DNA of 63,222 nucleotides, the filler included, from Hausera hauseri (Eukaryota): assembly GCA_046269625.1 (NCBI GenBank). It is 12 parts of 12 records of this genome, joined end to end, with 100 filler letters (N's around TTAATTAATTAA, not from the genome) between each part and the next. Parts side by side here need not be neighbours in the genome. Positions count along the whole stretch, not along the records: positions 14,416 to 19,315 come from JBJURY010398923.1; 11 more parts are not named here. One strand, written 5' to 3'. Shown one piece after another: positions 2 to 58,794 of this stretch; positions within the stretch are counted from its first letter, which is position 1; every line of letters begins with the position of its first letter. The notes under the pieces were generated by a model. The model had not been told where the DNA came from. It did no database searches and saw nothing but the letters and a program-made list of their open reading frames with translations. A program made the translations under genes and the position numbers.

Positions 2-436
2 AAATCAAGCTGGGACACCATAATCACGAGAATAGAGTTCGCCATAAATGCAACTTGGCAGGCAACAATCGGAATGAACCCCTTTGAAGTAGTGTTCGGG
101 AAGAAACTGTCTTTGTATGGGTTGCATCAAGATGCGGGAGTCCAAAACAACCCGACAGCGGAGCAGAATAATAAAAAGGCCTCCGAAAGATTACAGCTAT
201 TGGAAGATCAAAAACGCGGACACCGAATATTTCAAGTGGGGGAAGTGGTATTAGTAAAAAAAGATCTACACAAAAGAAAGAAAGATGGGAATAGATACGA
301 AGGACCATACCGAATAGTTAAATTCCTTACTCCACATCAGCCAGTACTACAATTCCCCAATAGACCGAAACCCAGGCGAATTGCGTGGTTGAAAAGAGTG
401 ACGTCAAACGATAAAACAGAGAGAGAGGGAAGTTAG
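2..436 (+). mobile_element. Ty3/Gypsy integrase C-terminal fragment (5'-truncated at window edge)
   Basis: Frame open from nt 2: KSSWDTIITRIEFAINATWQATIGMNPFEVVFG...FQVGEVVLVK...YEGPYRIV (GPY/F motif); purine run agagagagagggaag at the ORF end is PPT-like. Confidence 0.85.
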
Positions 437-4663: not shown

Positions 4664-4763
4664 NNNNNNNNNNNNNNNNNNNNNNNNNNNNNNNNNNNNN
4701 NNNNNNNTTAATTAATTAANNNNNNNNNNNNNNNNNNNNNNNNNNNNNNNNNNNNNNNNNNNN
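4664..4763. other. Artificial contig spacer N44-TTAATTAATTAA-N44 (also at 14316, 19316, 24202, 29152, 34841, 39606, 45145, 49439, 53570, 58795)
   Basis: Identical 100-nt pattern 11 times; the core has stops in all six frames. Confidence 0.98.
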
Positions 4764-5142: not shown

Positions 5143-8100
5143 TCACCCCTCCGTGGCAAAGTGAAAACTATAAAGATTAAAACAGAGGGAAAAATAAAAG
5201 CGCTAAACGAAAAAGTGTGTGTCTGTTGGTCTTAGTGTGGACAAGACATTGGGTGCCTTCTGCTGATTTTTCCCTGCTATACTTGCTAAATGTGACTCTG
5301 TGTGTTTTGTCTTTATGCGATGCGGTTGCTTGTAGAGGTTGAAGTTGGTGGAAAATTGTCGGATTTTGTTGTGAGTATTGTGTCGTGCGAAGACGAGTCA
5401 GAATGAAGAGAAGAGGAAGGTGAAGGAGGAAGAGAGAAAAATGTTGGAGTAGAAGTTGGAATTGAATAGGGTGAAAGAGTAGAAGTGGAAGAAGAAAGAG
5501 AGGTAATGGTGGAGAGAGGAAAAGAAATAGGGATAGAAGTGAAGAGAGGAGGAAGTTGCGAAGCGGAAATAAAAGGAATAAAAGACGATGTGTGAGGAGA
5601 GAGGGAGGAAAAAGGCGCCGAAGATGAGGAAGGTGTGAAAGGAAAAAAGAGAAAGAGAGAAGGGCGAAGAGGTACAAAACGGAATAGAGCGAGAATATGG
5701 AGAAGGCAAAGGAAAGTAGTTGGAAGGTGGTATGCAAGAGGTTGGAATGATAAAAGGGGTAGATGGAGAGATTGGTGAAGTCAAAGTGCTGTTTGGCGGG
5801 AGATGTCTTGTAATAGTATAAAGGAAGTTGTCACCAAGGGATGGAGGAGGTTTTAGAAGGCTTGAAGGTGCAAAATTGGATGGGGTAAAAGGCTAAATTG
5901 TCAGAAGAAATTGAAGTAGAAGTCTTAGGAGAAAACGTGGGGAAAAGTAAATTAAGCAATTGAGCAGAGATGGAAGGTGAATTGTTGGATTGCTGCGCGT
6001 CATGTCAAGATGTTGGTGGAGAAGTAGTTTCGATGGGACACGTATCGTCAATGAATAAACCGGTTTAGCATTGTTGATGTGTACTGTTACTTCTTTGTCG
6101 TCCTTGAAAATAATGATGTTGTGAGAGTGTAAACGAATTACTTTGTAAGGGCCAACATACTGAGGCTGAAAATCACACGGCGTCTGATTCTTTAGCCATA
6201 CGAATTGGCAGTATATAAGTCGTCGGGTATGTAAAATTTATTTCCGTGTAATAGTCTACAAAATAAGTCTTTGCTGATCTCAATAAAGTGTCTCTGTTTA
6301 GCTTGTATGGTTTCGCCTGTAGGAAAATTGTCCAGCTTAGCCAGCTCGAATAATGATCTGATGGAAGTACCAAATAATGCTTTTGCAAGTGAACAGCCTG
6401 TAGAAGTAGATAGTGTGTTCCGCCAGCCGAGCAGAACATACAGGAGGAGCGTGGTCCAACTGCGATTGGACTCAGCAAGGATTTTGAGAGACGTTTTCAT
6501 CGTTCGTTGAAAGCGTTCAAGAAGACCATTCGATTGGGGATGATATGGTGATGTGTGAATGTGGTTTATCCCCAATCGGTTAACAAGAGCTTTGAACAGG
6601 TTCGATTCGAATTGTGGGCCTTGGTCAGAAATTATGTGGCGAGGTGTTCCAAACCTGCTGATCCAAGTGCGGATGAAAACACCTGCGATTGTTTCTGTGC
6701 TGGTACTCCAAAGCGGACAGCCTCTGGCGATCGTGAAGAACGGTCCATCATTGTGAGGATAAACTGATGACCGTTGTCTAGGGGTAGTGAGCCTACAAGG
6801 TCAATGTGAACAGATTCAAAACGAGACGTACAGGAAATTGATACAGTGGTGGCTTTAAATGCTTAATAACTTTGTATTTTTGGCATGCCACACACTGCCT
6901 AACATATGCCTGCACGTTAGAGCGCATCGACGGCCATACTACTTGGCGTTGTAAGAGTCGAAAAGTGGCCTTGACACCCGGGTGATGCAACGAATGTATG
7001 CTGTTGAATGCTTCTTTTCGAAGCGAATCAGAAAGGATGACATTAGGATTATTAGGTTTGGAGGTGTCAAAGGCCACACCGTCGATAGTTTTGCACGATT
7101 TAAAAGATTTAAGGATGTCAGTAGGTGGCTGGTTTTGTTGAAGTTTAGATTGAGGGAAAATTGGTGTAAAATCAATTGAGCTGACCGATTGGGACAAAAA
7201 GTCAACTACTAAATTGTCGACGCCGTTTAAATGCTTAATTTCAAAATTATATGTGGACAAATACGATATTTTCCTCTCCTGACGTGGAGAAGGCGATTTC
7301 ATAGTGAGAATTTGAAGAAAGTGCTTGTGGTCCATTTGTATTGTAAAGTTCGGCGGTTAGCAGATGTTTAAACTGTTTTACGTCAAGGACCATTGCAAGC
7401 AACTCTAGGTTAAAGGTAGAATATCTTTGCTCTTGTGCCGTGAATTTACAATAAATGAATTCTAGTGGCTCATGGGATCAATATTTAACTTGATGGAGGA
7501 CAGCATCTGCAGCTGTTGTGGATTCGTCCGTGGTTAAGAAGAGTTCTGCATAGGAGTCGGGATAGGCCAGGATTTACAGGGTTTTTAGATTATCTTTAAG
7601 GTGATCGAAAGCGTTGACTAGCTTGGCGGTCCATTAAATAGGTTACTTTTCCTTGTCAGAGCTTATTGATGCAAATAGAGCGGTTAGAGTGGAGCAGTGT
7701 GGAACATACTTATTAATAAAGTGCAAGGTTCTGAGGAAAGAACGCACCTATGTTGATGTACGTGGTAGTTGTATGTTTCTGAGCTGTGTGATGCGCTCTG
7801 ACTGAGGTGAATATCCGGAGGAGCTGATGACATGTCCTAGGAAGTTGACCTTATGTTGAAAAAAAGAGCATTTGGAGAAATTAATTTGTAATTTGTTTTG
7901 GTGCAAGCGCTGGAAGATTAAACTTAAGTGCTGGCAGTGTTGTTTCGAGGAGGATAATGCAATTAGGATATCATAGCTATAGGGATAAGCAAAGTCTAAA
8001 CCTGAGAGAACTGTGTCAATATGCTTTTGGAAGGTCTGAAAAGCGCTACAAAGTCCAAAAGGCATGAAAAGCTATTCGAAAAGGCCGAAAGGTGTAATGA

Positions 8101-10572
8101 CAGCAGTTTTCGGAATGTCTGCTGGGGACACCGGAATTTGGTGGTATGCTTTGTGTAAATCAATGCAGGAAAAGATGGTCGAACCATGGAGCCTGTGAAG
8201 GATATCGTTGATTAATGGTAGAGGGTGGGCATCCATTGTTGCTATGGTGTTGAGTTGGCGGTAATCACCGCATGGGCGAAAGGTGCTATCTTTTTTTGGA
8301 ACCACATGCAGTGGTGAAGACCAGGGGGATTTAAATCTTCTGATTGTTCCTGATCTTTCCATTTGGAGAAACTCAGCCTCCACTGCCTGTATGTGACGAG
8401 GCGATAGCGGACGGACCTTCTGACGTATTGGTCTCTGATATGCTGTCACTATGTGATGAAAGGTGGATTGGGGTGGTATAAATGACTTGTCCTTTTGCAA
8501 TAGACGCGTGCAGGAGGACGAAATGTACTGCTGTAAATCAGAAGGTAACGATGACAAGTTATCCGATGGTGTCGATGTATCATGACTGGATGCAGTTGAG
8601 GTATGAGTTGTAGACAAGGTGTTGCGACTAGGTGGTATTTGGTTCAGGATGTTCGTGTTGAAGATGGTGTTGGCAGCTGTGCTATTAGTAATTGGTGCCA
8701 CGCAGTTGACAATATCGCATTTGTCATCGTAATAAAAATTTCTATATAATAAATAATTATAAAAATAATTCAAATCGGTAGTCATTTTCTTTACTATTGA
8801 CTTATTGGACGCGATCGCCGGGGTGGTCATCGAAATGCTGATTTGATTAAGATTATTTCCGCTCTTTAAAAAACATTGTTTGCAATCTACAAGTAAATTG
8901 TAGTGGGACAAAAAGTCTGAACCCAATATAAGCAAGTGTACATTAGCTATTGTAAATTTTTATGTGAATGTGTTTGTGAAGTGTGGGAGGGTGAATGTCA
9001 ATGTGGTGACTCCAAAAGTTTGTAAATGTTCACCTGGCGCAGTGAACAGTTGCTTTTGTGAAGTGTAATTGTGTTGTATGTGTTGTGTTGGTGGCAGTAG
9101 AGAGATTGCTGCACCGGTGTCTATAAGAAAGTTTATTATTTGCTTTGTTGGAGTGATAACTGCTGCGAGGACTTGCCGTGTGTCCTAGCGGAAAAATTAG
9201 TTTCTTGGTGCTGATGAATTTGGCGTACTGTTTTGTGTAAGCTTTTTAGTGTTGGTCTTATCGTGTGTGCTATAGGTACAGCCAGGTAGGCATTTTTGTG
9301 CTTTTGTGCCAAATTTTGAGTGGTAGATGCAAACGATGTTGCTTGTATTGAAATTAGGGGAACGAAATTTACAACCTATGCAGTATTTCTGAGCATTGTT
9401 GCCAAATTTGTATTTGACGTTGATTAAATGCACTAGGGGAAGCAGGCCTAGAAAAACCCCGTCGAGATAGTGTTAATGCGTTTAGTTTGTCGTTAATGTT
9501 GTTGATTGTTTTTTGTAATGTTTCATTTTTGTGCGCAATTGCGCTATTTGTTGCTGCAGCATTGCATTTTGTTGTTGTTGTTGATCTTCTGTCAATGCTG
9601 CAGAAATAGTTGGTGCTGCATTTGAGTGCAGTATTTCGCATGCCTTGTTTGCCAATTCGGCTAGCTTGTCAAGAGCCGCGGAGTCCTCAACCACAGTTAG
9701 CAAAGCTTTTATTTGAAGGGGCAATGCATTTAAGAAATAGCGACGAAGAAGCTCAGGACTGTGTTCAGAGGTTGCGTCAAGGGTGTTGAGGTGAGAGAAG
9801 GATGTGCGTAGGAATTCAAAAGGCTTCTGAAAGCCCATGGCGTTGTCGTTAAAGAACCTCTGGATGATTGAATTGATTGAAGGCTCAGTAAGCTTGAGAA
9901 CGGCATTATAAAGTTGAGTATATGGGTCAGTGTGATGAGGGATATCGATGATATTGGTAATTTTAGTTTTGATGGAAGCTGGTAAATTGAAAAAGAGACT
10001 GTTAACTTTGGCTAAAGAGTCGACGACATTTTGCGATTGGAGCCAAAATTGGTGCAGTTTTAACCAAGTTTGAGTAGAGTTTTGGCTGTCGAGAAAATAT
10101 TCGGTGAAAGGTGAATGAGTGAGGAGGGTATGTTGCGTAGGGATGTTTGAGGCGCTGTGTTTGGGTAAGTGAATGATGGAGATTTGTTGTTTAGTGAGTT
10201 TGTCCGTGGTGTCAAATGTGGGTGACGAATCCATGCCACCACGGATACGGAAATTAATATGAAAATAGATGTTGGTTGAGGAAGATTGTAGAGTTCCAGC
10301 GAGAAGTACTAGAGATCCGTTATGTGCAAGTTAGAAATCAGAGGAGTGGAGTAAGATGGAGGTAAAGTTATGAATCGTTGCAGTGTGTAAATGCAATGTT
10401 ATGTACGTGCGTATGAGTTTATTGTTTAGAAAAAGAAAGATGGAAAGGGGAGAGATAGTGTCCGAGAGCGTGTTGCGCGGCAGAAATCAAAGGCACCGTC
10501 TGATCCACTGGCGCAGGGTGGGCGGCCGGGACCTCAGCCTCGCTGCGGCGGGTATCAAATTTCGGGGTAACC
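5021..10572 (-). mobile_element. CsRN1-clade-like Ty3/Gypsy LTR retrotransposon, degenerate, 5' LTR not found
   Basis: Gag 9197-10234 with CX2HX9CX3C motif (CIYHSKFGTKAQKCLPGC); protease FLIDTGAAIS (~9100-9135); RT WSSPLHVVPKKD...DYRQLN...IDLHKAYHQI...MPFGL; RNase H; HHCC zinc domain; integrase SPYHPQSNGLLERF and GPY; PPT ggaggggtga; degenerate tRNA-Trp-type PBS tcggttaccccga at ~10562-10574. Confidence 0.88.
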
Positions 10573-12836: not shown

Positions 12837-14135
12837 TCAGAACCAAAATGGTCGAAATAAAATCAATTTATTTTTTAAAATAGTGTACAAAATGTATCTT
12901 CTGTTTAGTATATTTAAACAAAAATATTTTCTGATTGTCTGTATGTTTGTCGATAGATCGATAAGTAAACCTGATGTCAGAGGAATTTCAATGGGGGATA
13001 AATCACACAAGACAATTTCCTGACATCCACGATCGGTGGTGGAATAGAAATGAATAGCGGTATCGTATCCGATTAGCGAGAATTTCGCTCGTTCGGCACC
13101 GGGGAATTTCTCCAATAGATCTGATATCGTTTCCATAATCAACCGGATAATTGACGGATAAAGTGTCCCAGTGGCATTGTAACTGATGTCTAATAGAATG
13201 ACGTAATTTATACAATAAGATGACTTGACTGAATATTCTTTAGGGACGATGTATTCCACGGTAGCCATTTTAATTTCGGACCGTTTCAATGGGTCGACAT
13301 ATGCACCGGTTGTGTCACTGAACAAATAATCGTCGGACAATTCATTAACTTTGAGACAGAGATTGCATTTCCATCGGCGATGATCGGTAAACATGACAAA
13401 TGGATTAATGTATGCCCGACATGCCGATGAACGACATCGTTGGATCATTTTCGATTTGATGATTTGCAGACTGGACAAATCACGGAACGGATGGATGAGA
13501 AGAGCGAATGGCAATCGGGTTTTGTTCAGAATGTCTTCCGAACAAGGCACGGCATTGAGCGTACATCGCATCACGTTCAGATTGCAATTGGTTTTCTTTG
13601 TGAAATGGGACAAATCAGGAACGGGGACGGTGATGCCAAATGGCGGAATGAGAGTACGTTCATCGGCCACGTTTATCATTCGTCTGGATGGCGTCATTGA
13701 ATCGCAATTGAAACCGGATAGTGATGGTGGCGGAATACTGTCTTTAAATGCCATCGTCGATAGTTTATCGGCCGGTTGAGGGAGTTTCGGTGTCATGGAA
13801 TGGCTTACGTTGTTCTGCATGCTGACTTCACTGGTGTTCGTTGGAAATGGCGGCAAACTGTTGGTACTACAACTCATGTTTGTCGGCCTTTCTGGACCAA
13901 CTGTCATTGCGTCGATTGTGGGAATTCCACACGTCTGATCGATACAGCCGTAACTCGATTGGAAATTGATTTCATTCGACGAAACCAGTAATTGATCGTT
14001 TCCCGGATGAACTGATAAGCCCTGAAACGACCCGTTGAGTTTATTAATACCGCCTGTCGAAATGGGTAACGATGAAACGGATGACGATTCCACATTACTT
14101 TGAGACCGCTGACAATAGATATTTTGCGATGCCAT
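12837..14135 (-). CDS. SEC24: COPII coat protein SEC24, N-terminal half only (Zn finger + start of trunk/vWA domain), intronless and 3'-truncated
   Basis: NCNLNVMRCTLNAVP...LPFALLIHPFRDL...RCRSSACRAYINPF...WKCNLC...ATVEYIVPKEY...YVILLDIS...IGYDTAIHFY; homology ends near 12930. Confidence 0.9.
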   Translation of the reverse strand: MASQNIYCQRSQSNVESSSVSSLPISTGGINKLNGSFQGLSVHPGNDQLLVSSNEINFQSSYGCIDQTCGIPTIDAMTVGPERPTNMSCSTNSLPPFPTNTSEVSMQNNVSHSMTPKLPQPADKLSTMAFKDSIPPPSLSGFNCDSMTPSRRMINVADERTLIPPFGITVPVPDLSHFTKKTNCNLNVMRCTLNAVPCSEDILNKTRLPFALLIHPFRDLSSLQIIKSKMIQRCRSSACRAYINPFVMFTDHRRWKCNLCLKVNELSDDYLFSDTTGAYVDPLKRSEIKMATVEYIVPKEYSVKSSYCINYVILLDISYNATGTLYPSIIRLIMETISDLLEKFPGAERAKFSLIGYDTAIHFYSTTDRGCQEIVLCDLSPIEIPLTSGLLIDLSTNIQTIRKYFCLNILNRRYILYTILKNKLILFRPFWF

Positions 14136-14415: not shown

Positions 14416-16341
14416 TTTCATTCTCTCTATTAGGGTTTATTTTGATAGCTAAGTACAGTAATACTTTTCTTAATTATTCAGTGGTGTTTTCTACCATGAT
14501 CTTTTCGATCACCGTTTCATCGGTTAAGTTGCTTTTGATAATTTAAAACGTGAAATTCTCATCATCCTGGCTACATTAAATATCTCCATTTCTTTATCGT
14601 CCTGTGTGCCGCCTCGTAGGCTTGAATAATTTACAATTCGTATCAAATTCCTCATTAATTTGCTTAGATCTTCATTGTCTGTGCTGGACATAGGAATCGA
14701 CATTTGTCTCCACTCTGTAACCATTTCCCCATTATAGTCAACTTCTCGTGTCTTCTGAGGTCTACCGACTGGGCGTTTGTGTCTCAAGATATCGGTTATC
14801 GTTTTACTTAGTGGCACTAAATTTATATCATATTGTTCCTTGTCTTCATCCGTTTGTAAATATTCAAAATACATTGCAGCTTCTCGGACTCCCATGACTT
14901 GTCCCACACACTGTTCAGTTTTAGCTTTACGCGTGGCTTCTTTAGTCTGCTCATTGGCTATTATCACCACTATTCCATTTGTTTTGTCAGGTATAATCCC
15001 AACGTCTATCAACTGTTCTAGGTAGTCCAGTATTCTACCTCTAAAGTAGAATCTATAGCTTAGCTCGTTTGTCCCACCATTATTTATAAACTATTTTCTT
15101 ATATCCCTCACATAGGAATATGTAGTTAACTCACATTCTTTTTCATCCATCCGTTCGCATGATATTTTTATTTTCAGCGTTACCTTAGGTTTAGCCCTTA
15201 AGATTTTAGCATATTTCTTTATCGAAAGTTTCGGCATTGCGCTATAAATTGTGTTCTTACTAGACAATTTAGTCAAAGTCGGAATAAGTTGCCTTAACTT
15301 ACTTTCAGTAATGTTTACGTTAATTAGTTCGATTAAATTTTATTTAGATAGTGCTGAATCCAGGAGCATCTCCATATTGAATCTACTATTCTGCGGACAC
15401 GTTTCTAATTCATTTAGCTGTACTGAAGTCACAGGATTTTTGGCCGTTAATGCATTTAAGTACGCATCCCATTCCGGTTCACTTCCAATGTCTGGGGATC
15501 CATAGTCTTCCAATGCTATATTCATTCTTTGTACATTTTCTTGAATTTCCTTTAACTTTGGTTGTATTTCTTTAATCTGTGTGGTCCGGAACCCTATTTC
15601 GTTTCCACAAGCGTTCTGAATTAGTTTTAATAATTCGCGCAGTTCGTTCACTGAAATGAATCCTCTTTGATGGTAGTCGGTCAATTAGATAAGTACATTC
15701 TTTTGCCATCTTTGTAAAATCCATGCTTATTTTTTATTTCTGACTCAGTGAAGACGTATTTGTTCCGATAATTTTCGAGCTCTTTTATTAGTTCGTCTAA
15801 CCTGGTTGCTCTTTGTTTGGTTCTAAAACATGTTTCTTCAGCCTGTCTTATTCGAGATATGAATTGTTTCATCCTTTCATCACCAATCTGTGCCATTTCT
15901 ACGAGCAACAGTACAAGCTCGTATATGTCGTTAAGAATATTTAAGTCAGGATCTATCGCAGTGAGCAATTTCTTTACAAATTTAGTTTCCTCAAAACTAA
16001 GATGTTGGTCGTTTCTTATTTTTGTCAACTCGGTATGGCAATTCTGATCTGTTCCAGCTATACATTCTTGTGGTTTATGTATAAATCTTATTACTTCCTC
16101 TATAGCCGTTTTATGTTCTGGACAAATATCTAAGGCTTCGATATCCTGGATGGAAATTTCATCGATAGATTTAGCTGTTAGATGCTGGATTCCCTCTAGT
16201 CGGACGTTTCTTAATCTTGGGTGAAATTGGCAAGTCATATTCTGCTTTTCTGTAAAGATTGTTTCTTCGATCATTTTATATATTTCTTTTACATATTTTA
16301 TATATTTGTTCTAATATCGTTTCTATCATTGTGTCTAGCAT
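14416..16341 (-). pseudogene. ORF2 of the RING-LTR element: helical N-region + ubiquitin-like domain (~14960-15183) + AT-hook-like KRPVGRP; disrupted
   Basis: ORFs 15340-15684, 15091-15276 and 14524-15012 share one frame. Read-through gives VTLKIKISCERMDEKECELTTYSYVRDIRK*FINNGGTNELSYRFYFRGRILDYLEQLIDVGIIPDKTNGIVVII, which aligns by eye to ubiquitin (RFYFRGRIL vs RLIFAGKQL; LIDVGI vs LSDYNI). Confidence 0.65.
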
Positions 16342-16360
16342 ATCTATGAACTGTCAATTC

Positions 16361-17083
16361 TTATTCTTGTGCGAATTGTAAAATCCTTTCAAAATTTCCA
16401 GGTCTGGCCAAAATTAGCTGTTTAACTAAATCTCGGGACCAAATATCACTAATTAATTGTGTCGTCGTCATGACATCCAAATCTGGCGGGGTTGCCTTTT
16501 CTGCAGCATCACATTCTGCGTCTGATTTAGCTTTTGCTACATTAGCTATTCTCAAAGTACTCACATAACTATTAGCGAGTTTCTTCAATGCAAATGCAAA
16601 CTGGGTTACCGATTCACCCTTCTGTTGCACCCTATTCTGAAATGCCATAAGTTTCTGTTGTGGCCTTACACTCGGCAATAATTTACGGTTCAATGCTCCT
16701 ACCAAGGAGGACCAAGATTTCTTCTCGTCATTAGTAAGTTCACTATAAGCATCGGCGGATAAATTCTTCAAATATAGCGATAAACGTTTAATCATTATTT
16801 CAAGAGTAAAATTGGTACATTCTGCGTACAATTTATAAGTCCTCAAAAATTCGTTTAGCCCGTCCGGATCACCGTCGTATGCTGGGAGATTCAGAAAATT
16901 AAAAGTGAAGATGTCTAGCTTCTGCGCTACTGGTGGGTTCTCTGCTGCCATGTGAGTCTCAAAATTTACTTTATTAACTTTAAGTTCTACAAGAGGAATT
17001 TTAAACTTATCGATTCGCTCAACGGCGGTTAACTCTGTATTAGCTAAATTTACTCTAGTTTCCGAAATTGAACGTTTATGCAA
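16361..17083 (-). CDS. Retrotransposon Gag (capsid-like domain)
   Basis: LPAYDGDPDGLNEFL...LSLYLKNLSADAY...SWSSLVGAL...RVQQKGESVTQFAFALKKLA (major-homology-region pattern QxxxESVxxF). Confidence 0.85.
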   Translation of the reverse strand: MHKRSISETRVNLANTELTAVERIDKFKIPLVELKVNKVNFETHMAAENPPVAQKLDIFTFNFLNLPAYDGDPDGLNEFLRTYKLYAECTNFTLEIMIKRLSLYLKNLSADAYSELTNDEKKSWSSLVGALNRKLLPSVRPQQKLMAFQNRVQQKGESVTQFAFALKKLANSYVSTLRIANVAKAKSDAECDAAEKATPPDLDVMTTTQLISDIWSRDLVKQLILARPGNFERILQFAQE

Positions 17084-17358
17084 ATTTTTGCTATCTCTAT
17101 ATATATTCCTACTTGTCTAGCGTATATGCGAGTTCTTTCTATCGTTTCGACCAAGGTTTCCCTTTAGCCTATGAATATTTGTTCCCTAGATTTTTACTTT
17201 AAATTTTCCGTTCAACTTATAACCCCCCCCAAAATTTAAACTTCCGAACTATATTCGATTACTTGATGTGGGGCGCTGATCGCCGATGTCGTTTTAGTTA
17301 ACTCTCAGCTGAAGTAAAGTCTAGCGAGGCACTAATCTGTCATGCTAGGGTCGCCAAA

Positions 17359-18075
17359 TGTTATATATTGGGGTGGCCCTTATTCAACTCTCACTATATA
17401 ACAGTAGTTTCCTTGAAATTAAACTCTCTTATTCCGCAGGTAAGGTCTATCGAAACCAATAGACAAATTGTTCCTTATCTTATAGCTCTATTTTAAAACA
17501 GTAAGTGCGTGTACTGCGTGCTTTCAGATGTTTGCAATTTTAATGTACTCTCGTCTTACCTATCAAATTTTACAGTATATTTTAATTCCTAGTGGAGTCT
17601 AATTACCCTTATTGGACAATTTGAAACTATATGAAAGCTTTAAATCAAGACAAAATTTAATGAAAATAACGATTTCCAACTCACGGATATACAGGAATTC
17701 GGATCAATGATAAGATAATATCGTCAAAGTTTTACTGTTAATACTGACAGGTTTGATTCTCGTTTCAATTCTTCGTTTTCGCTACTTCTGTTTCACTGTT
17801 TTCACTTCTGCTTTTACAGTCTTAGAGCTTGTCAAAAAGCTGTTTTAATTTCCTTTTTTTTACTTTAATAGTGATTAATTTCTAGTTTTATTTCATTATC
17901 AATGGGTATATACATATTTGATTCATACCATATCTATTTACATTTATGACCAATTCAGTTAATTATAATTTCCGACAGTTGGAATAACAAAATTATTATT
18001 TATAATTAATATTGCCAGCTGTGGCATTAGTTTCGGTTCATGGACCATCCATTTTGATAGCCTACTGGTATAACA
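17359..18075 (-). repeat. LTR (~717 bp) of the RING element, copy 1
   Basis: Flanked by PPT upstream and PBS downstream; TG...CA ends; U5 half homologous to 56889-57200. Confidence 0.8.
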
Positions 18076-19315
18076 TTTCTCCTCTTTGAACTGTATCCTC
18101 GAAGGTGCCCATTTCATTAGAAGTGCCGCCAACTCTCGGTTGTCTCAGCATATTTATGCGTCATTGTAAACTCGCTCCGGAGTCTATGTTGGGTTGGTTG
18201 ATTCGGACATTTGTTTCTAACTTGTAACTATGATGGGGTCAGATACGGACTATTCGTGTATAACGTCCGTTTAAATAACGTTTTAGGTCAATCGCCTCGG
18301 CCCGGCATACTGGGCAAGTAGTTTTACCGTTTTCCAAGGTCCACCTCTCTAGACAGTCTCTACAATATTTATGTCGCGCTCTTTAGTGTCTAGGATATAA
18401 GATTCTTGCTGTAAGTCTGCTTCACTTACGGGACATTCGTGTGCTTCTTTCTCCCATTTCTTATCGTCTAGATCCACCCTTATCAATATCTCAATTTTCT
18501 CGAATATTAGACCATCCTCGCCCTGGTACAGGTACCCATGGATCCTGCTTTGTTTGGAATCTACGGAACTTCTTCTTGGATCGCAGCTTACTGTCACCAG
18601 TGTCCAGTCCGCCAAGACTTCGTGATCCAAGTTGGGAATCTTCTTTTCGGTCTAATACTTCTGATAATGTTTCTTTAGTAATGTTGTTATTTGTTTGTCC
18701 ACGGGTACCATTAGCCTGCCATTCCTTTTCGACTGGAAAATTGGGGCAACATATTTTCTTAACTTGGGATTTTCCCAGATGTAAGTATTTTTATGTACTT
18801 CTCTTTTCGGTGTGGTCTTAAGGTAAAACATTGCTTCTTTGACCTTTCCGTGACTATAATGTTCGGTGGTCACTAATATTTTTGAACAGTCCTTGGTTGT
18901 TGCGAATTATGTATTTCCTGAAGATAATCATAGAATGGAAGTTTTTTCCTTGATTCTTGGATCATTTTCTCAATTTTATGTTTTTTTTTAAATCTTCGGA
19001 ATTTTGAATATTCCGGTTTCGTTTTTTCCTTGGTTGTTATTTCGGATCTTCTGTGGCTGGTATCCGGTAGTTCCTCTGTGGTTGATTTTCGGACGGCCTT
19101 GGATATGGTTAGTTTAGGATTATCTTCTTCTACCGGTGCGATAACTCTATTAGTAGTATAGGTGCAATATTTTTCCGATGTTTTTCGTTAATCCCTTTTG
19201 GATTTGAAGAGCTGCATAGATTCCGTTCTGATTTATTGGGAGTCCATACATGATCCCACTTCAACCCTACATAAATATCGTGGTGGTATTGGATACGTTG
19301 ACTCGCCATCAACAT
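18062..19315 (-). pseudogene. RING-finger ORF of the LTR element, copy 1 (stops and frameshifts)
   Basis: TYIWENPKL...ADWTLVTVSCDPRRSSV...IHGYLYQ...ECPVSEADLQQ / RHKYCRDCLERWTLENGKTTCPVCRAEA; collinear with 57680-58705. Confidence 0.85.
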
Positions 19316-19415: not shown

Positions 19416-22380
19416 AATCCTAAATCGTACTGTTTCATAAGCACCCCATCATAGCGTTTTACAACTTCCACTAATTGACCCTCCGCAATTTCCGGTTTTC
19501 CCATTGTTCTCACTGCTGCAATCTCTCGTTCGAGATCCACTAATGCCGGTTTTCATTAATTTCAAATCAAATACCTTTAAAATATATATACGTCCAATAG
19601 CTTCCGGCCTGATTGTTACATTACTATCAATTCAATCCCATGTACTTCAGCACCTCATGTACTTCCCCAAACGCCCATCACTTTTCGAAAAGGCTCCACT
19701 CAATATTAAAGCGCACTTCGTTAGCCTAGGCTGTCCCATCGCTTTCCAAATCTTTCCATTGATTACTGACACTTGCTCCACTATCCAACATTTCTATTCC
19801 ACACTTGTTCAACTTCACTTTACTCTACCACCGTCCGTCTTCTCCCACTACCATTGCTGCATCTCGATTTTACAAATCTACGCCAACTCCACTGACGAAA
19901 TGCTCACAGCAGAGTTTCTTGTGTTTAAAGTTTCTTTAAAGTCTTCATATTGCACTATTTCATCCCTATGGTCGTCATACATCTCTTCTACACGCACACA
20001 TCGGATTTACCTGCCGTAATTTGAAAGTTTCTAAATCCGTGTCCACTTTTTCTACATATCAAACAAGTTGTTTAAAAGGCAGTTTCTCCTAATGTGCTCA
20101 TATTTTCCACAGAAAAACAATCACTTCTTCTTTCGACGCTGGTACCTGTTTCACGCTGCAGTAGAGCTTTCTAACTTCATTATACAGTGCGTTGGATCCC
20201 GTCTTTATCTGTGCTCAAACTGAAAGGTGGTTTCTTGTACGGAGCAATATTGTTCATCGACCTCGTTTCAAACCTTTCTTTTCTCGTATATTCTGTTCCA
20301 CTCTTGTGGTTGAACCGTCTTCTGTCATATACTTTCCAAGATTTCGCTTGGGAGCGTTTACAGCATTCCGGAAGGATTTCTTCACCAGAGCTCATTCTCT
20401 GTATTCTTCTACGGTTTGGCAATCCTCCAAAATTTTCACCTCCCTAATCTCTTCTACCGTCATTTTTGATTTGAAGACAAACTTCTGCCTTAACATTTGT
20501 TAGCCGCGGGAGCGTCCATGCCGCTCATCTCGTCGCTCAGCTTGGTTGAGTTGAAAAATCCCCGTCCTCTGGTATATCCGCTAAAGCGGAATTTGACCAT
20601 TTGTAATCACTCATTGAAAAGTTAACACCAGTTATTAAAATTATTATTTTAAAACACTCATTTTGAAACAAATTTCCTGAAATTCTCAATTTAAATTTTA
20701 TTTTTGTAAATAAATTTTTAATATTAAATTAAATTAAATTCGTGGTTGGCTTTTTTAATTTTTAAATTTGCTTTTAATTTAAATTTGGAATTTCACTTCA
20801 CGATTATATCCTCACATCCCCCTTTTTTAAGAATCTCCAAAGTTTGGCCATCTTCATGTCGTACGTATCGTCTGTCGTGTACTTTCTCAATGATCGTATA
20901 CGGGCCTTCGTATGTCTTTCTCCTTTGTTGTTGATTACTTCCGTACCAGCACCTGATCCCCTACTTCAAACGTCCTTTTTACCGAGGGTCCTTCCTGAGC
21001 CTCTGTGTTCCTCCCTTCTGTTCTTTCTTTTTGTCCATACCATCTTTCTCTATATATCATCCTGCCAAATATTATCTCTGTTAGGCTCTTGCCTGTCGTC
21101 TTTTGGATTGTCGCATTCGACGTAAATTCTATTTCTGGTAGTATGTCCTCCCGGTCCACTCTCGATTTTTCTGCTATGGTGGCATTTATGTATTCTCCGA
21201 TTGTTCGGAATTGTCGCTCGATGATATCATTTGTGTTGTGGTGGTATGAACTCGAATAGCGCTTTTTTATATTCATTGATGACATGTCTTTTATAAATTT
21301 CGACTCAAATGCTTTCTCGAAGTCTGTATGTATTTCTTTAGGTGTTCCGCATTTAAGGATCCATTTATTTTCTATCTCTGTTTTGATGGTTACTTCGTCT
21401 TGCTTCGGTATAGCAATTAGGGTTACGTATCTACTGTACTGATCTATCATTGCTAAAATATATCTTTTTATTCTCCATGTTTCCTTCATTGGTTCACAGA
21501 TATCTATGTATATTTTCTCGAATAGCTCGTTTGACGATAGGTTCACTGTTTCTTCCTTCGTGCTGTTTGTCAAGGTTTACTTCGCTGACAAGCTTCACAA
21601 TGTCGAACTACTATCTGGACTGCTCGTAGGTCGTACATATCGTAGTTACTGTCAATGTATTTTATTATCTTTTCTGATCCTGCGTGGGACAGCATGACAT
21701 GGTTATGCATTATCATTTCTACTTGTCTGTTCGTGTGTATTCACATCTTACCTGTTCGTATTTTTATATCGTCTTGTAATATAAAACTTCCTTGTTTACT
21801 TCGGACAATACTTTTATTTCTTCGATTTCCCTGCTGTCCTTCTGGTATTGGTGTTTTTGCTGTTTCAACGTTTATCCTCCGAGTCTTGCTTTTCTGCATT
21901 TTGGCGTCGTCGCGTCGTTGTAGACATTGGCTGCATGTTTCGCAACTCGTGCGGGGTAACATATCTGCGTTCGCATGATCTGTGCCTTTCCTGTACTCCA
22001 GATTGATTTAAAGACTGGATAGGTAGTTGATCCACGTCTGAAATTGGGCTGTTATCGGTTTTTTGTCTTTACCATGAACGTTATTGCCTTGTGGTCCGTT
22101 CTCAATGTGAACCGTCTCCCGTATAGGTAATGGTTGAAATGTTGACAGAAATAATACATGGCCAGTAATTCCTTCCGAGTTATACAATATCCTTTTTAAT
22201 GGTTGTTCATTGCGTTTGATCCGTATGCAATCACTATCTCGCGCCCAAAAGTATCCTTCTGAGGCAGTACCGCTCCAATTGTGTCTAAGCTTGCGTCCGT
22301 ATCAAGGATAAACTCTGTTGAAATCAGGGAAACCTATTATTGGCGGTGTGGCTAAGGCTCGAAGGTCTCGTTACATTACC
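19416..22380 (-). mobile_element. Ty3/Gypsy element in pol - PPT - LTR - PBS - gag/protease arrangement, degenerate
   Basis: RNase H ILDTDASLDTIGAVL...RKELLA...LRTDHKA (22000-22320); integrase KIYIDI...IERQFRT...FEVGDQVLVR (20935-21573); PPT aaaaaaggggga; degenerate CCHC CGKYEHIRRNC (~20080-20120); protease LDSGA (~19770-19790). Confidence 0.8.
20602..20816 (-). repeat. AT-rich LTR (~215 bp) shared between upstream pol and downstream gag
   Basis: TGTGA...TTACA ends; PPT directly 5'; 2-nt spacer then a TGG-initiated PBS-like sequence (tggtcaaattccgc) 3'. Confidence 0.7.
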
Positions 22381-22741
22381 CGGTCCATATTATTTGTGGA
22401 TGTTTTCGTTTGTTGGCTCCGCTCTTGTTCGTATAAGTTGCATATCGGGAATAAAAAAATATCCTAGCTGAACAATTTGAAGTCGTCGAAGAAGAAAACC
22501 TTTTATTATTTAAACACATTTAAAAAATATCAGTGTTTTTCGTTTGCTTTTTGCATTTGCTATCACGGTAATTATTCTGCCTCCCCACACATTATTCCTG
22601 TTTGTCGTAAATTTATAATATGAATAAGAAGTCAATTCACTGATGTTATAAATACTGTATTCAATTACGGATTCGTGAAATTTAGAAAATCCAATGTTAA
22701 AGAAAAATCATGCCCGAAATTTTATTTGTTTTAGGCACAAC

Positions 22742-24201
22742 ATAGCCCCCTGTGAAAAGTTAAAAAATGATATTTAGCAGCTATTTTGACGAATTTTTCC
22801 AAAAAACTGAATACTAAGTTTTAGTCGTCCTGATTCTACATGAATGATACTATACATGGCCATATGGTTTAAACTGCACTTTTTGCGTGTTTTTATGGTG
22901 AGAGCTGGTAGTTCGTTTGACGAGTTTGTGGAAAGTAGCGTATTTTGAGAAGTTTGCGTTTGCTCATTTCCTGCTCCATCTGCGCAGTCATCAATGTGAA
23001 TGGTCCGTAGAAAATGAGATATTGTTTCGTTATTTGGACATTTATAGGGGCTGGAGACTTCCTCAACTATTTCTCTTGAGGCATTGGACGGTGGTTAGTT
23101 TGGCTATTATTTTGAATTAATAGCTGTTTTAGAGAGTCTGGTTGTGGTAAGTTAAATAAATCATAACAAAGGTTTATTATCAGGGGTTTTATTTTCATTA
23201 ACCGTTTTTTCCGCACCGTCTGTGATAAAAAAGCTGGTTTCACGTTTGTAACGTGAATGACTACTTCCTTTCCGTCGCGAAGTATTATAGCGTTATGCGA
23301 ATGCAATTCCATCAGTTTGTATGGTTCAATATATGCCGGTTGAAAAGCGTGCTGCGATGGGTTACGCACCCAGACAAACTTTTCTTCATACAATTTCTTT
23401 GGTAGAAACGTCTTTTCCTGTTTAGCACTCTGCAAAATTTGTCATTATCGAGGTCAATAAAATTTTGTCTTGCTGCGTTAATGTTCTGATCTGTAGGTGT
23501 TCTTTCACTTTCCTCAACGTCAGTGCCCTGATAGATGTTTCAAACAAAGCTTGTGCTGGAGAACAGTCAGTTGATGTTGATGGAGTATTTCTCCAACCTA
23601 AGAGAATTAATGGAAGAATTGACAGCCAGTTTGGATTAGCTTCGGCGAAGATTTTTAGCGACACCTTCAGCGTTCTGTGAAAGCGTTCGATTGAGCTGTT
23701 TGCTTGAGGGTTGTAAGGTGACGTATGAACGTGGGTGATTCCTAACGTGTTGACTAAAGCTTTGAAGAAAGCTGACTCAAACTGGGCTCCTTGATCGGTA
23801 ACGATATATTTAGGAGAGTCATGGCATGATAACCAAGTATTTATGAAAGCGTTGGCCACTGTTTCAGCGTCTATACGTTTTAATGGAATTGCTTCTGGCC
23901 ATCGAGTGCATAGATCCATCATAGTAAGTAAATACTGATGTCCTTGGGCTGGTGGTAAAGGGCCAACTAAATCCAAGTGTACAGTTTTGAATCGCGAAGT
24001 ACAAGGAAAATGAAAATTTGGTGGTTTAATATTTTTATTTACTTTAAATTTTTGGCACGCTACGCATTGCTCAACGCAGTTCTAAACATCCTTTTGCATT
24101 AAAGGCCAGTTAACTGAATATGTAAGAGATTATAGGTGTGTCATGCTCCTGGATGATGCAATCGATACACGTGATCAAATGTCTTTTTTCGGAAGGAGTC
24201 A
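22742..24201 (-). mobile_element. CsRN1-like Gypsy integrase and 3' end (second copy of the family at 5021-10572)
   Basis: VHLDLVGPLPPAQGHQYLLTMMD...RWPEAIPL...IVTDQGAQFES...SPYNPQANSSIERFHRTLK; PPT cagggggcta followed by TGTTGTGCC at 22742. Confidence 0.88.
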
Positions 24202-25006
24202 NNNNNNNNNNNNNNNNNNNNNNNNNNNNNNNNNNNNNNNNNNNNTTAATTAATTAANNNNNNNNNNNNNNNNNNNNNNNNNNNNNNNNNNNNNNNNNNN
24301 NATCAACTAAAAAATAAGCAATCATATTATACAAAGATACGCATTGATTGAAGTCTGTATGAACTACCTGACAACGCTTCACCTATTTTCAATTATATGC
24401 TTTTCGTGATGTCACAAATGAACATAAACCATTAAATATTACTGCCTTAGCGACAGTTTGTTAAACGCATCTCAATCGGTTAGTTCGATGGATAGGCAAA
24501 TATCAGTTGTTTACAATGGTACCGTCAATGCTATGCGCAATTAGAATTTGTCTAATTTCTCGTCCATTGAATCGATTCTATACCAAGTTGAATTTGCGTT
24601 AATTAATCGAATATTAACTGTCGAACAAAAATGATTATTTCACCGCGTTTTTCAATGTAAAGGGTAGAAAATCCATTAATACGATGATGGTAATGCGCAA
24701 ATGAAAAACAAATGATATTTATTATTCCAATAAGTAAAACAATAGAACTCGATGATAGATGGAACATATGCAGAACATATTCCGTCCATCCATCCATCCA
24801 TCCATCCATCAATCCAATCAATAATCAGACATCATGATAATATATATATTTTACAAATCTAAAACAATCATCATCATCATTGCCACCAACACACGTTCGC
24901 GAGCGCACACACACACAAACATACACACACTCACGAATACACACAAGCATATATAGTACAATACGACACATTTCAACGTATCGCCTATGTACACACAAAC
25001 AACATG

Positions 25007-28000
25007 TTATATTTGAGAATCTAGAATCTTCTTCACGACTCCATCGACCTCGTCTGCACTGACTCCATCTCCATGATCCTAAATAAACAATAATAACATC
25101 AACATCATCATCGTTATCATTCGTTGGTGCATCTCCATCACAAACCTTGTCTACTTTCTGAATCAATTTAGCGACATCCTTACGCAAATTCGTCAGTTTG
25201 TCTTTGTAAACCGTTGTTTCCGCTTGGAAATTCGTGAACAATTTACGTAGACCTTTCTCGTAATTGTCAAAGAACTTATCCAGTGGAAATTCGGCGAGTT
25301 CTTTCGGTGTCAGCGAGTGGATAGCGTCTTTGTCAATGGGCCATTCTGGTGGCAGGAAATACCTCAGACAGACCCTGAATTGTCGTTGTCAAAAGATCGG
25401 TCAAACACTGTCTCACTTCAGATTCTCGAATACTTTCTCGGAATTGGCGAGTACGTTCGCCGATCGATGGCGAATATCGGCACTCGTCAGCGGCATCCAA
25501 ATGTCGGCATCATCCTCATTTACTGGATTATCCAATTTGACCCTCCACTGATTGTCCTTCAGCTCCTGGACTCGCCCACTGACCCATTTGTTGTTCATTC
25601 GCAACTGCACGTCCAACATTGATGCCCCTTCTGGTGTCCCGGATCCAGTCTCTTCCATCTGCAACAAGTTTCATGAGTAATCGTTATCTTCAACATGAGT
25701 AATACTCACAGGCTCCTCCTTGATTCTGTTACTATCGGATACGGATGTCGGATGTTCACCATTGACAACTGGTACGCTCGTCTGATTCTCCTGCCCTTTC
25801 TGGTTCCTCGTCGTCGGTCCACTCGACTGCGGCTGTGTGTTGTCTTTACCTCTCTTCTCTGGTGTCTTTGTCTCATTATCCTACACAACAGCATTCATCT
25901 CGTCAATCAATAAATAATGACGAACGTGGGATTTATGTTCAATTTTACCCACCGGCAATGGTTTCGTACTGGCGAATGGATTCTTCGATTCAGTGTTCGA
26001 CGATGTCGATGAATTTAATTTAGGTATTTTTGTTGCAACGACATTGTCTCGGGATTTCGTGATTGTATCCGATTTGCCTTTCCGTTGTTCCAGATTGCGT
26101 GCTGCCTTTTCCGATGGCATCGTGACTTGATGCGGCTTGAGATTTTTATTCTGCAGTGCGATTGACGGCGTTAGTCCGCCACTTTTCGATTTGCGGACTG
26201 ACGAATCCACTGATGTCGATTTTGTCGGCACATTCACCTTCTCTTGGATGGCTTTCTTGGCGACGGTTTTCACCTTCCTACTCGGTCGACTGCCTATCTC
26301 GTCATCATCGATCTCCTCCTCCTTCTCATCCTCATTGTCCTCTTCCTCATCTTCGTCTTCCTCTTCTTCGTCAGACGAATCCAACAAAAATCGCGATTTT
26401 CGGCCGCCACTTTTCCGATCACCGCCGGTTATTTTCTCCAACTCTTCTTGCTTCTTACGAATTTGCTCTTCCAGCTCAGCCTGTCGCTGTTCTTTCGTTT
26501 TGATTTTCCGTTTGAGCGTATCGACGGGGATGTTCAGTTGTTGTTCGGGCTCTGCACATTTCTTGTGCTTTGGATCGGGGTTGTCTTTACATTGCCAACT
26601 ATCGGGTACTTCTTTGCCAATGAGATTTTGCTGGAATGGTAAAACACGCCATTTCAGACATTGGTCACATTGCACACTCAAATTGACACTCATCGCTCGT
26701 TTCTTGACGAATTTCTCGTCGCCACTCGGCGGATCTCGCCATTTCGCTGATTGGTATCCGAATTTCGCCCACAGTACATCGGCACTTTTGGAGTCCATCC
26801 CGATATCGTCCCAATATTGCATCAGATGATCTGCCATCGCCCTCATCAGTGCACGGAATTCCTTGGCGTCAGCAAAGTCCTGTTTGTTGTGAGTCGGCTC
26901 CAGGACGAGATAAGGCACATTGACAATGCCGACAACTCCACGACAAGTCAATCCGCTGTCTTGTTGTGGACCAATTCGCTGGTACATTTTGATGAGTCGT
27001 GAACAATTGTATACGAACATGCCGTCACATGCACGATTTTCCAGATTCATGCCGAAGTAGAATGTGAGGGTTTTCGGTTCTTTCAGTGCTCGTTGTTTAC
27101 GGTTGTATGCGTTTTGTTTCATTTTTACCATTTCTCTCGTTTCCGATGCTTTGTTTTTGATGTATCTCACCATTTTCTAGTGATTGAAATTATTATTTTT
27201 CATAAATATTAATTTTGATAAATATTAAAATTCGTAAATATTCCATTAAGCCGTTACTCACCAACGTCTCAGCATCTGTCACATTGGCGTACCGATTATC
27301 AACGTCCCGTGCCTTACTTTCCGCTTCTCTCGCCTTCATCTCAGCTGCACATTCAAATGGCAATTAGCAACCAATTATCGGCAATTAATTCTCACCTATT
27401 TTCACCTCCTCCTTTGCACGACTCACCTCCGATTCAGCACGAGTCTTGAATGTCTTACTGGCATAATGATACATACGAGGCTTATACAGACAGCTGACGA
27501 GACGTTTTGTTTGAACTTTTCGTCCTTGGAGATAGACCTTCATACGAGGATCTGAATAGAGAATGGACACATACGCCCGGAGACTCCGTCGTTCGGGACA
27601 CAGTCTATTAACAGATAAATGACCTATCATAAGGCATAATTGGCTTACTCGACATCGACATCAACACCAGCATTCTCACCGAGATCAGGATGAGTCAAAA
27701 TGACATCACGACTGTCACTGAATACATCCAATTCGGCTTCACCGTTGTCCAGTAATTTCATATTGTAAATGATGACCAGAGTCCCTGTTGGACCTTTGAT
27801 TTTGTCGAATTGGGAAAATAGGTCCTTTAGACATTTGAATGGCGAGTATTTCAGAATAAGTGACACTTCAAGTTCGTGTCGTTTCTTTTCTTCAGTTGTA
27901 TCCGATATCGGAGATTTATCCGATGTTCGGAATGACGGCAATGGTACGATAACCTCGTCGATCTTCTCCTCCTCGTGGAAAGTCCGTGAAAGAAATAGAC

Positions 28001-28204
28001 ATGTTAAGATGCCGTCTTTCTTCGTGAATAGGATCATGTCGTTACCAATACGCATGGAGCCGCTGTCGATTGTTGGTTAGTAAATAATCGCCAATGGAAA
28101 TTAGAATACTCACGATTTGAGACCGTTACCGTACATGCCAATAGCCGTTGACTCTTCGGCTTTCTTGACGGATTTGCCGAATATGATAACAGCTCGTGTT
28201 TCGT
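25007..28204 (-). CDS. MORC2: MORC family CW-type zinc finger ATPase MORC2, 9 visible exons, N-terminal ATPase exons missing
   Basis: Exons 28204-28114, 28062-27649, 27604-27396, 27344-27262, 27176-25953, 25880-25710, 25658-25417, 25374-25146 and 25078-25007 join in frame through GT-AG introns of 42-85 nt. Motifs: [31 protein letters not shown] finger QCDQCLKWR...WQC...C, and MORC2-type C-terminus CLRYFLPP. Confidence 0.93.
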
Positions 28205-56800: not shown

Positions 56801-56888
56801 TAAATTTTGTTCTCTGGTATAAAATTTATTTACATAACAAAATCCGACATTTCTCTGGCTAATATATTCTCTTTTTAATTGTTTAAAG

Positions 56889-57687
56889 TGTTATATTTTG
56901 GGGTGGCCCTTAACGATATCCCGCTATATAACAGTGGTTTACTCTTGAAGTTAGTCTCTTATGCAGATTCGATTTAACGTTCTCGTTAAACGAATGTGCC
57001 AATGTGTATTAATTTTTAAAAGAAAAATCTGCGTGTACTGCTTGTCGTGTCCTGTGCAACGGTTAAATAACGTTCTCGTGCTTATAAGAGTTTAAGTAAA
57101 TTTTATTTCTTACTGTCGTCAAATCAGCCTTAAGGGCCGATGGAAACTATAGTGGGAATTTAGAAAAGAATCAATAAATATACCAATGTAATAGCCAACA
57201 CAAAGGATCACAGCGATTGATGAATGTCTTTAGTACTGTTGAATATCACTGAATGAATCACTGAGAATCTTCGCAACACCAGTCAACTCTATAGTCAACG
57301 AATATTTGGCTGTTCGACACTACAGTCGAGGAAAACTTTTCGCAAATAAGTTTCAAATCGCAGGTTTAACCGACACTATAGTCGATAAAAATTTGTTCTC
57401 TTTTCTCTCATTTGGTCTCGTATTTATAGTTCAACGCAGGTGCTTTTTCAATTTATTTTTCATTATCGGTATTTATTTTGCAATTTCCGCGATTTCGAAA
57501 CATTGTTTATCTTTTGATTAAAATGCACTGCATTATATGACTGTAAATATTCGCGTAATTTTTCTAATTGTGAACTATTTACAATGAATCAATTTTGAAT
57601 TATATGTACACAATCAACTCGAGCCAACAACAATTTAGTTTCTCTCTCAGTCGATTCGAGTTGAATTGGAATTAGTTTTTCACAACA
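56889..57687 (-). repeat. 3' LTR (~799 bp) of the RING element, copy 2
   Basis: PPT cagggaggagaga then TGTTGTG at 57687; ends ...AATATAACA at 56889 with no PBS after it; homologous to 17359-17640. Confidence 0.8.
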
Positions 57688-58794
57688 TCTCTCCTCCCTG
57701 AACGACATCCTCGGATGTGCCTATTGCGTCAGGAGAGGTGGCGCCCAATGGTCTCGTTCCTCTTAACTGGTTCATTTTCTCGTGTAAGTCCAATAGGGAG
57801 TCCGATCTAGCTTGACTTGTTGAAGGTCTTGGTTCAATGTCATAACTGTAATGGGGTTGTATTCTAACCATTCGAGTGTAGCTCCCGTTAGAGTAATATT
57901 TTATCTCGGTGGCCTCCGCACGACATACCGGGCACGTGGTTTTCCCATTGTTTAGGGTCCATTTCTCCAAGCAATCTCTGCAATACTTGTGACGGCAGTT
58001 CTTATTATCTAGTATTACGTATCCCTGTTGTAGATTGGCTTCGCATACAGGGCATTCATTTTCTTCTTTACCCCAATCGTCTCGATCTAAATTGACTTGA
58101 ATGGTTAACTCGATTGGTTCAAAGGTGATTCCGTCGCCGTCTTGATATAGGTATCCGTGGATTATTTTCTGTTTGGGATTCACTGAACTTTTCCGCGGAT
58201 CGCAATCTACTTGGATTAACGTCCAATCCGCCATAAATTCTTGATCTAAATCGGGAATCTGTCCTTCTACCTTATATTTTTGATATTGTTTCTTTAGCAA
58301 AATCCTAATCTGTTTGTCTACGGGAACTATTATTTTTTCTGTTCTTTTGGAGCGAAATACTGATGTGAGGTATTTTCCGAGTTTGGGGTTTTCCCAAATG
58401 TACGTGTTTTCAAAGACTTCTCTTGCTGGTGTCATCTTCACATAGAATACCGCTTCCTTGATCATCTTTTTACTATAATATTCTCTAGTTACTAGCATTT
58501 TGGGCAAGTCTTGAACTGTTTTATAATGTACCTCTCCTTTGTCCTTCCTTTTGATTAAGGAGTTAATTTCAGTTATTATGGGGCTTTTAGATTTCTTTTC
58601 GACCGAACTTATATTCCTTGATGTACTTGGCCTGTCATGTTGTCTTCCTATTTCTTGTTCTGGGTTTATCTTCCCTTTCTTAAATAAATAGTCATAAATA
58701 GACAAGGTTCTTTTGGGTTTGGGTTGTTCTTCTAACTTAGGTTTCTTAATTAAAATTTCCGTTTTGGGCTCGTCTCGTTTCTTTGTAATCCTTG
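57680..58794 (-). CDS. Intact C3HC4 RING-finger ORF of the LTR element (open to contig edge, >=370 aa)
   Basis: CPVC-x15-CRHKYCRDC-LEKW-x8-CPVCR; no stop up to 58794; the stop codon lies inside the first bases of the LTR. Confidence 0.9.

Follow-up and report, generated by a model that had tools for sequence, protein, structure and literature searches.

The 4.9-kb contig at positions 14416 to 19315 contains a decayed LTR retrotransposon of an animal, recognizable by an LTR with TG...CA ends, a primer site after it, a polypurine tract before it, a gag gene and the presence of many copies. The window, i.e., the whole stretch of DNA that was analyzed (63,222 nucleotides from Hausera hauseri), consists of 12 short contigs that are joined by 11 linkers of the form N44-TTAATTAATTAA-N44 (at 4664, 14316, 19316, 24202, 29152, 34841, 39606, 45145, 49439, 53570 and 58795); the contigs on either side of a linker have no connection with each other. 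Along its minus strand, the 4.9-kb contig carries, in this order, a RING ORF, a polypurine tract, an LTR, a primer site, gag and a long broken ORF. These features, together with two from another contig, are the following.

18071..18918, minus strand: decayed ORF with a RING finger, extending up to the polypurine tract (partial RING match in Pfam, E 2.6e-5)
18076..18087, minus strand: polypurine tract, before the LTR
17359..18075, minus strand: LTR of 717 bp, TGTTATA...TATAACA, between the RING-bearing end upstream and gag downstream
17339..17358, minus strand: primer-binding-site-like sequence TTTGGCGACC..., immediately after the LTR
16364..16951, minus strand: gag (capsid-type) ORF, with a Retrotrans_gag match
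14417..16310, minus strand: remnant of the long ORF that follows gag, about 630 codons, running off the contig end (open-frame reading)
14960..15183, minus strand: putative ubiquitin-like (beta-grasp) domain of about 74 codons (PF00240 match with E 0.13, 21 of 26 segregating variants synonymous, motifs)
15091..15093, minus strand: TAG nonsense codon, nearly private to the window copy (sense codon in most of the depth, 50 contigs)
57683..58792, minus strand, other contig: open RING ORF, truncated at the contig end (370 codons), after which come a polypurine tract and an LTR
56889..57687, minus strand, other contig: second LTR, TGTTGTG...TATAACA, not followed by a primer site and hence a 3' LTR

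The gag frame is open from 17116, with the first ATG at 16951 and a stop at 16363. Retrotrans_gag is the only Pfam match of this ORF and occurs at the expected place, with E 0.0025 and a score of 18.4 bits that is below the family cutoff of 24.1. A TGG following the CA of the LTR is the usual arrangement in such elements; no tRNA gene matching the primer site is found in the window. The last approximately 80 bp of the LTR at 17359-18075 are 74-78% identical to the second LTR, at 56889-57687. The former, a single LTR, joins a 3' end (RING ORF and polypurine tract) to a 5' start (primer site and gag), and is a head-to-tail or recombinant junction. Directly after the second LTR, there is an open frame of 219 codons (56234-56890, minus strand) with no Pfam match.

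The other contigs of the window are of mixed content. An animal host is indicated by a MORC2-like gene with a CW finger (24825-28080, minus strand, E 3e-91 against human MORC2). The contig that adjoins the element in the window carries a Sec24-type gene (12837-14135, minus strand), with 432 codons, no visible intron and Pfam matches to the zinc finger and the trunk, and the end of a gene for a proteasome activator of the PSME4/PA200 type is located at 45972-47765 (plus strand, Pfam E 8e-16). Fragments of other LTR retrotransposons are present at 6192-10330 (minus), 20935-24081 (minus), 48006-49438 (plus) and 2-433 (plus); three of these pieces match the DUF7041 gag, reverse transcriptase or integrase, and the rest was assigned by eye. 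Broken ORFs at 40800-43521 (minus), 52469-52984 (plus) and 61042-63122 (plus) are, judged by eye, candidates for the family-B DNA polymerase of Polinton/Maverick elements. The contig at 29252-34840 consists almost entirely of CT/GA simple repeats and masked stretches, and the long ORFs in it are artefacts.

The data on the family come from one public sequencing run (X1), which is possibly the window's own source. In this run, 8,126 contigs align to the 4.9-kb contig, and 6,509 of these are less than 95% alike; thus, the element belongs to a many-copy dispersed family. The depths given below are summed over contigs and are not equivalent to copy number. Over the LTR at 17359-18075, the summed depth in X1 is high across the last approximately 170 bp and low across the rest.

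The long ORF lies directly behind gag and shows no introns. It is interrupted by stops at 15340-15342, 15091-15093 and 14474-14476 and changes frame near 15700 and near 14530. Between gag and this ORF there is a stop along with a frame change (near 16300-16363), and the other contigs diverge from the window copy at 16283, so an in-frame link of the long ORF to Gag is putative. No protease motif is found in the approximately 845 visible codons of gag and the long ORF, and the same codons yield no Pfam match to the MATH, BIR, ankyrin or BCL2 domains; a BCL2-like stretch after the putative ubiquitin-like domain, to which the domain order of the planarian Burro elements drew attention, does not gain Pfam support. 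A CCHC knuckle (CX2CX4HX4C) is missing from all minus-strand frames of 14417-16954 in this copy, which is decayed and might have lost sequence near 16283. Motifs of pol (protease, reverse transcriptase, integrase) are not detected on the contig, which ends at 14416.

Database searches identify no relatives of this ORF. A phmmer search against 1.84 billion representative proteins gives no matches at E 0.001, word-index searches of shorter proteins are blank both for the 270-aa translation across the TAG and for residues 45-135, and scans of metagenome and viral contigs are blank as well. An Atlas search with the ORF piece 15684-16310 returns only matches of 0.82 or less, and among the public runs listed with the stretch, X1 alone, there is no RNA run. 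The long ORF is therefore an orphan in the searched collections, which may under-represent proteins of animal transposons.

The segment that is the subject of this analysis lies within the long ORF, a context that was absent from the preliminary description of this DNA, namely a reading frame that follows gag in a decayed LTR retrotransposon with many copies. The alternative that the segment belongs to a host gene for a protein with a ubiquitin-like domain, and simply has a retrotransposon as its neighbor, might be suggested by the lack of protease, reverse transcriptase and integrase on the contig and by the putative status of the Gag fusion. However, 574 contigs of X1 align to the 256-bp stretch 14945-15200, 489 of them being less than 95% alike, and coverage in X1 is continuous between the segment and gag; furthermore, the ORF directly follows gag, has no introns and has no relative among the 1.84 billion representatives. 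These observations make a host gene extremely unlikely, and the segment is treated below as part of the element.

The TAG at 15093-15091 is in frame on the minus strand, with a 61-codon piece (15276-15094) upstream and a listed ORF (15012-14524) downstream, and both its position and the peptide quoted originally are correct. Where the preliminary description invoked read-through of this codon, the comparison of copies that it proposed gives a different answer: another letter yields a sense codon in 1378.5 of the summed depth of 1471.3 (94%; 50 contigs of X1), and this codon is not one for glutamine, the residue that had been placed at the stop. The two other stops are also nearly private to the window copy, given that other contigs differ within the codon in 977 of 1000 depth at 15340-15342 and in 4981 of 5038 at 14474-14476. 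Thus, the TAG is ordinary nonsense decay in one dead copy, in which three or more nonsense codons are nearly private. Read-through between ORFs of retroelements is well known, and the sequence on both sides of this stop is coding, which would be in favor of a programmed read-through signal or of an amino acid specified by TAG under a variant genetic code. Both possibilities are rejected in view of the sense codon in 94% of the depth in X1, the other two private stops and the frame changes, and a variant code is further disfavored by the fact that reading TAG as sense extends few ORFs in the window; the probability that remains for either is very small.

Comparison of the copies over the stretch 14945-15200 also bears on selection. 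Of 48 differences, 40 were listed and 39 were classed, the stop site being omitted; variants with a share of 12-90% among the copies were considered segregating, and positions at 90% or more were considered the window copy's own departures. Within the 39 classed differences, 21 of the 26 segregating variants are synonymous, compared to 7.3 expected (P 3e-8), and 19 of the 25 segregating sites are third positions of codons. For the window copy's own departures, the corresponding count is two of 13 against 3.3 expected, and nine of the 11 private sites of this copy change the amino acid. Even if all eight unlisted differences were segregating and non-synonymous, the synonymous share would be 21 of 34 (62%), compared to a neutral share of 28%. 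Because the two classes of variants behave so differently (21 of 26 vs. 7.3 and 2 of 13 vs. 3.3 synonymous), the protein of the family is real and evolves under purifying selection whereas the window copy decays neutrally.

A Pfam search started with a 74-aa cut of the segment, with X at the stop, identifies a single match, the ubiquitin family (PF00240), with E 0.13 and a score of 12.5 bits compared to the family cutoff of 25.4. The alignment places residues 13-68 on model positions 9-64, with equal lengths on both sides, and is colinear across 56 of the 72 model positions. The score below the cutoff was obtained with a query that is a decayed copy containing X at the stop, and the amino acid changes of the tested copy, at nine of its 11 private sites, probably lower it. 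The original observation that length and register follow ubiquitin almost without gaps is thus upheld by the colinear alignment with equal lengths but weakened by the E-value and the score. Likewise, the proposed HMMER comparison with the Pfam ubiquitin family returns ubiquitin as the sole match of the 74-aa cut, but below the cutoff and in a manner that depends on trimming: the match is present in the 74-, 76- and 81-aa cuts and gone in the 69-, 89- and 270-aa cuts. PF11976 is not among the Pfam matches reported for the segment, and searches of PHROGs and NCBIfam reveal nothing for it. The combination of FRGRIL (15045) and LIDVGI (15012), which we take to be a signature of the ubiquitin family, occurs at that spacing once in the six frames of the window, with a pattern that was written after the segment had been seen.

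As a control, 30 other 74-aa segments from open frames in the window were scanned against Pfam. Nine of the 30 reach E 0.13 or better with a Pfam family, including one genuine gag match, and none matches ubiquitin. For one named model, 0.003-0.017 matches are expected by chance in the whole window, and this expectation increases to about 0.24 if approximately 70 models of the clan, a rough estimate, are allowed. Taken together, the sequence comparisons are suggestive of a ubiquitin likeness that is weakly above chance.

Structure prediction contributes little. The AlphaFold models are single-sequence models, computed without an alignment, and their pLDDT values of 38.8 (270 aa) and 48.4 (89 aa) are too poor for testing the fold. 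The low-confidence 89-aa model (pLDDT 48) shows a long helix in place of the second strand and no beta-grasp. With the same model, the best Foldseek match has E 0.31 and the best VIA match has Z 3.2, with nothing at Z 5 or more; a ubiquitin-like chain is absent among the matches listed in these fold searches, which is not evidence either way. Ubiquitin-family chains are abundant in the PDB, and a phmmer search against PDB sequences produces no match at E 10 or better.

These results leave some room for the possibility that the segment is a constrained part of an orphan ORF with another alpha/beta fold, in which the resemblance to ubiquitin arose by chance. The Pfam score below the cutoff and its dependence on trimming are compatible with this explanation, as are the comparable E-values of nine of the 30 controls, albeit with other families, the lack of a PDB sequence match and the 89-aa model that is not a beta-grasp. 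Conversely, the match is to a family that was named beforehand, is colinear over 56 of 72 positions and is of a kind expected only 0.003-0.017 times per window; the amino acid changes at nine of 11 private sites in the tested copy would lower any score; and single-sequence models of such poor quality do not allow a fold to be excluded. A chance resemblance therefore appears unlikely, although not negligibly so, and the segment quite probably adopts a ubiquitin-like (beta-grasp) fold.

A ubiquitin-like domain in this position need not be a modifier. In the 219 codons from 15183, the only Gly-Gly pairs are those at residues 36 and 191, and there is none at the end of the segment, in agreement with the original remark that a C-terminal GG is missing; the segment accordingly does not possess the feature of a conjugatable modifier, a Gly-Gly at the C-terminus of the domain. 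Pestivirus polyproteins carry ubiquitin inserts, and the location within a long polyprotein-like ORF might suggest that this domain, too, is a ubiquitin spacer that is cut by host deubiquitinases for processing of the polyprotein. The lack of GG at the domain end argues against such a function, and so does the resemblance to ubiquitin, which is remote rather than near-identical, so this explanation is very improbable. Integral ubiquitin-like domains are well represented in cellular proteins, such as Rad23, parkin and UBQLN, and in the coronavirus nsp3 protein (Ubl1 and Ubl2). The candidate domain resembles these in having about 75 residues in the ubiquitin register and no terminal GG and in being part of a larger protein, and differs from them in having no detectable sequence relative, being encoded by a mobile element and having a putative fold. 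The proposal that the segment is an integral, non-conjugatable ubiquitin-like domain is thus plausible in view of the colinear PF00240 match, the lack of a terminal GG and the purifying selection, but goes along with a score below the cutoff and uninformative fold predictions.

The second component of the element with a potential link to the ubiquitin system is the 3' ORF. In the copy at 57683-58792, a Pfam search identifies an intact C3HC4 RING finger (57923-58054) with all eight zinc ligands (zf-RING_2, E 2.3e-9, 37.8 bits vs. the cutoff of 27.3). The two copies, 18071-18918 and 57683-58792, share 59% amino acid and 67% nucleotide identity, and over 277 codons, pN is 0.24 and pS is 0.755, the synonymous sites being saturated. 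Given that both copies end at a polypurine tract followed by an LTR and that pN (0.24) is far below pS (0.755), the 3' RING ORF of such elements is a gene under selection. The N-terminal approximately 240 residues have no match, Pfam does not detect BIR in this ORF, a word-index search of shorter proteins is blank, and the Atlas shows only generic RING look-alikes (0.85). The link of the RING ORF to the gag element consists of a single junction, the shared LTR. In X1, gag and the long ORF have a summed depth of 1,700-33,600, compared to 5-385 for the RING ORF and U3, so that most of the gag-bearing copies are without a RING ORF that is 80% alike to this one. The RING ORF may be fast-evolving, given that its two copies in the window are 67% identical in nucleotides, or may be the gene of a minority subfamily.

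On balance, we favor, with some reserve, the following interpretation as a whole: the segment belongs to a constrained frame and is likely a ubiquitin-like docking domain, and the TAG is a nearly private nonsense codon in a dead copy. The segment, in a frame preserved by selection behind gag, would be a built-in ubiquitin-like domain that, judging from its anatomy and from precedent, would be subject neither to conjugation nor to removal by deubiquitinases. Most likely, such a domain would act as a decoy for proteins that bind ubiquitin, namely proteasome shuttles, deubiquitinases or an E3, or as a surface on which they dock; this surface role is deduced by analogy with known domains, and the proteasome or E2 docking named in the preliminary description is likewise putative. 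Docking would shield the Gag-linked protein, or the particle, from degradation. The domain may also act together with the C3HC4 RING protein from the 3' end of the element, a putative E3 ligase, and the two would then let the element tamper with host protein disposal, as has been proposed for the planarian Burro. The title of a report on UBQLN2 and PEG10 (PMC10076021) indicates an action of host shuttles on Gag proteins.

To our knowledge, retrotransposons rarely fix extra domains. In the literature searched, which excluded most subscription papers, the Repbase entries and all supplements, the planarian Burro is the sole animal LTR element with cargo from the ubiquitin system. The accessible part of the published account describes Burro/GYPSM1 as giant gypsy-like LTR elements with an ORF1 of about 4,900-5,100 aa (4,873 aa for the one whose domains are given) that begins with retrotrans_gag and CCHC knuckles and also includes AIR1, Smc, MATH, Ubi2/SUMO-like (PF11976), BIR, ankyrin, BCL2-like and env regions, along with protease, dUTPase and RT (Arkhipova and Yushenova, PMC6431247). 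A region of Burro1 with RING and BIR is reported, in the available text of a paper citing Lee et al. 2026, to protect stem cells (PMC13465017).

As far as these partial accounts go, the element described here is similar to Burro in being an animal LTR element with many copies and a Retrotrans_gag start followed by long extra coding sequence, in carrying RING-type cargo (RING and BIR in Burro1) and in having decayed copies with stops and frameshifts. Burro has a ubiquitin/SUMO-like domain after gag, and in this element, a weak match to PF00240, with PF11976 not reported, is located at the analogous place. Unlike Burro, in which gag is followed by two or three CCHC knuckles, the copy analyzed here, decayed and possibly lacking sequence near 16283, has none; the MATH, BIR, ankyrin and BCL2 domains mentioned for Burro, as well as its env, protease, dUTPase and RT, are not matched in the approximately 845 visible codons; and RING is encoded in a separate ORF that abuts the polypurine tract and does not include BIR. 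Thus, the element seems to be built along Burro's lines, in a comparison of descriptions rather than of sequences that does not establish membership in Burro.

Captured genes in the 3' part of LTR elements have precedents outside planarians. According to the available portions of the respective reports, rotifer LTR elements encode an exonuclease or lipase as a non-env ORF3 before the 3' LTR (PMC5718144), and orchid LTR elements contain a non-env AlkB ORF (PMC9289625). The element analyzed here resembles these, to the extent that they are described there, in having a captured host-type ORF that is kept by selection and is located after the internal region and ahead of the 3' LTR, and differs from them in its cargo, a C3HC4 RING protein with an unmatched N-terminal part.

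Viruses use accessory proteins for shielding their particles or for destroying host restriction factors. It is conceivable, although we put this forward only tentatively and consider it rather doubtful, that the element represents an undescribed LTR lineage, independent of Burro, that has a two-part module of its own, consisting of a Gag-linked ubiquitin-like domain and a RING E3 in the env position, which would shield particles or destroy restriction factors.

Were the interpretation given above true, the long ORF would also provide, for characterization, a family of orphan proteins with 600 codons or more. One Burro element is reported, in the accessible text, to be beneficial to host stem cells (PMC13465017). 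If the interpretation given above is true, the element would be a second, sequence-unrelated case, which would suggest that capture of ubiquitin-like and RING domains is a recurring strategy of LTR elements for dealing with host protein quality control.
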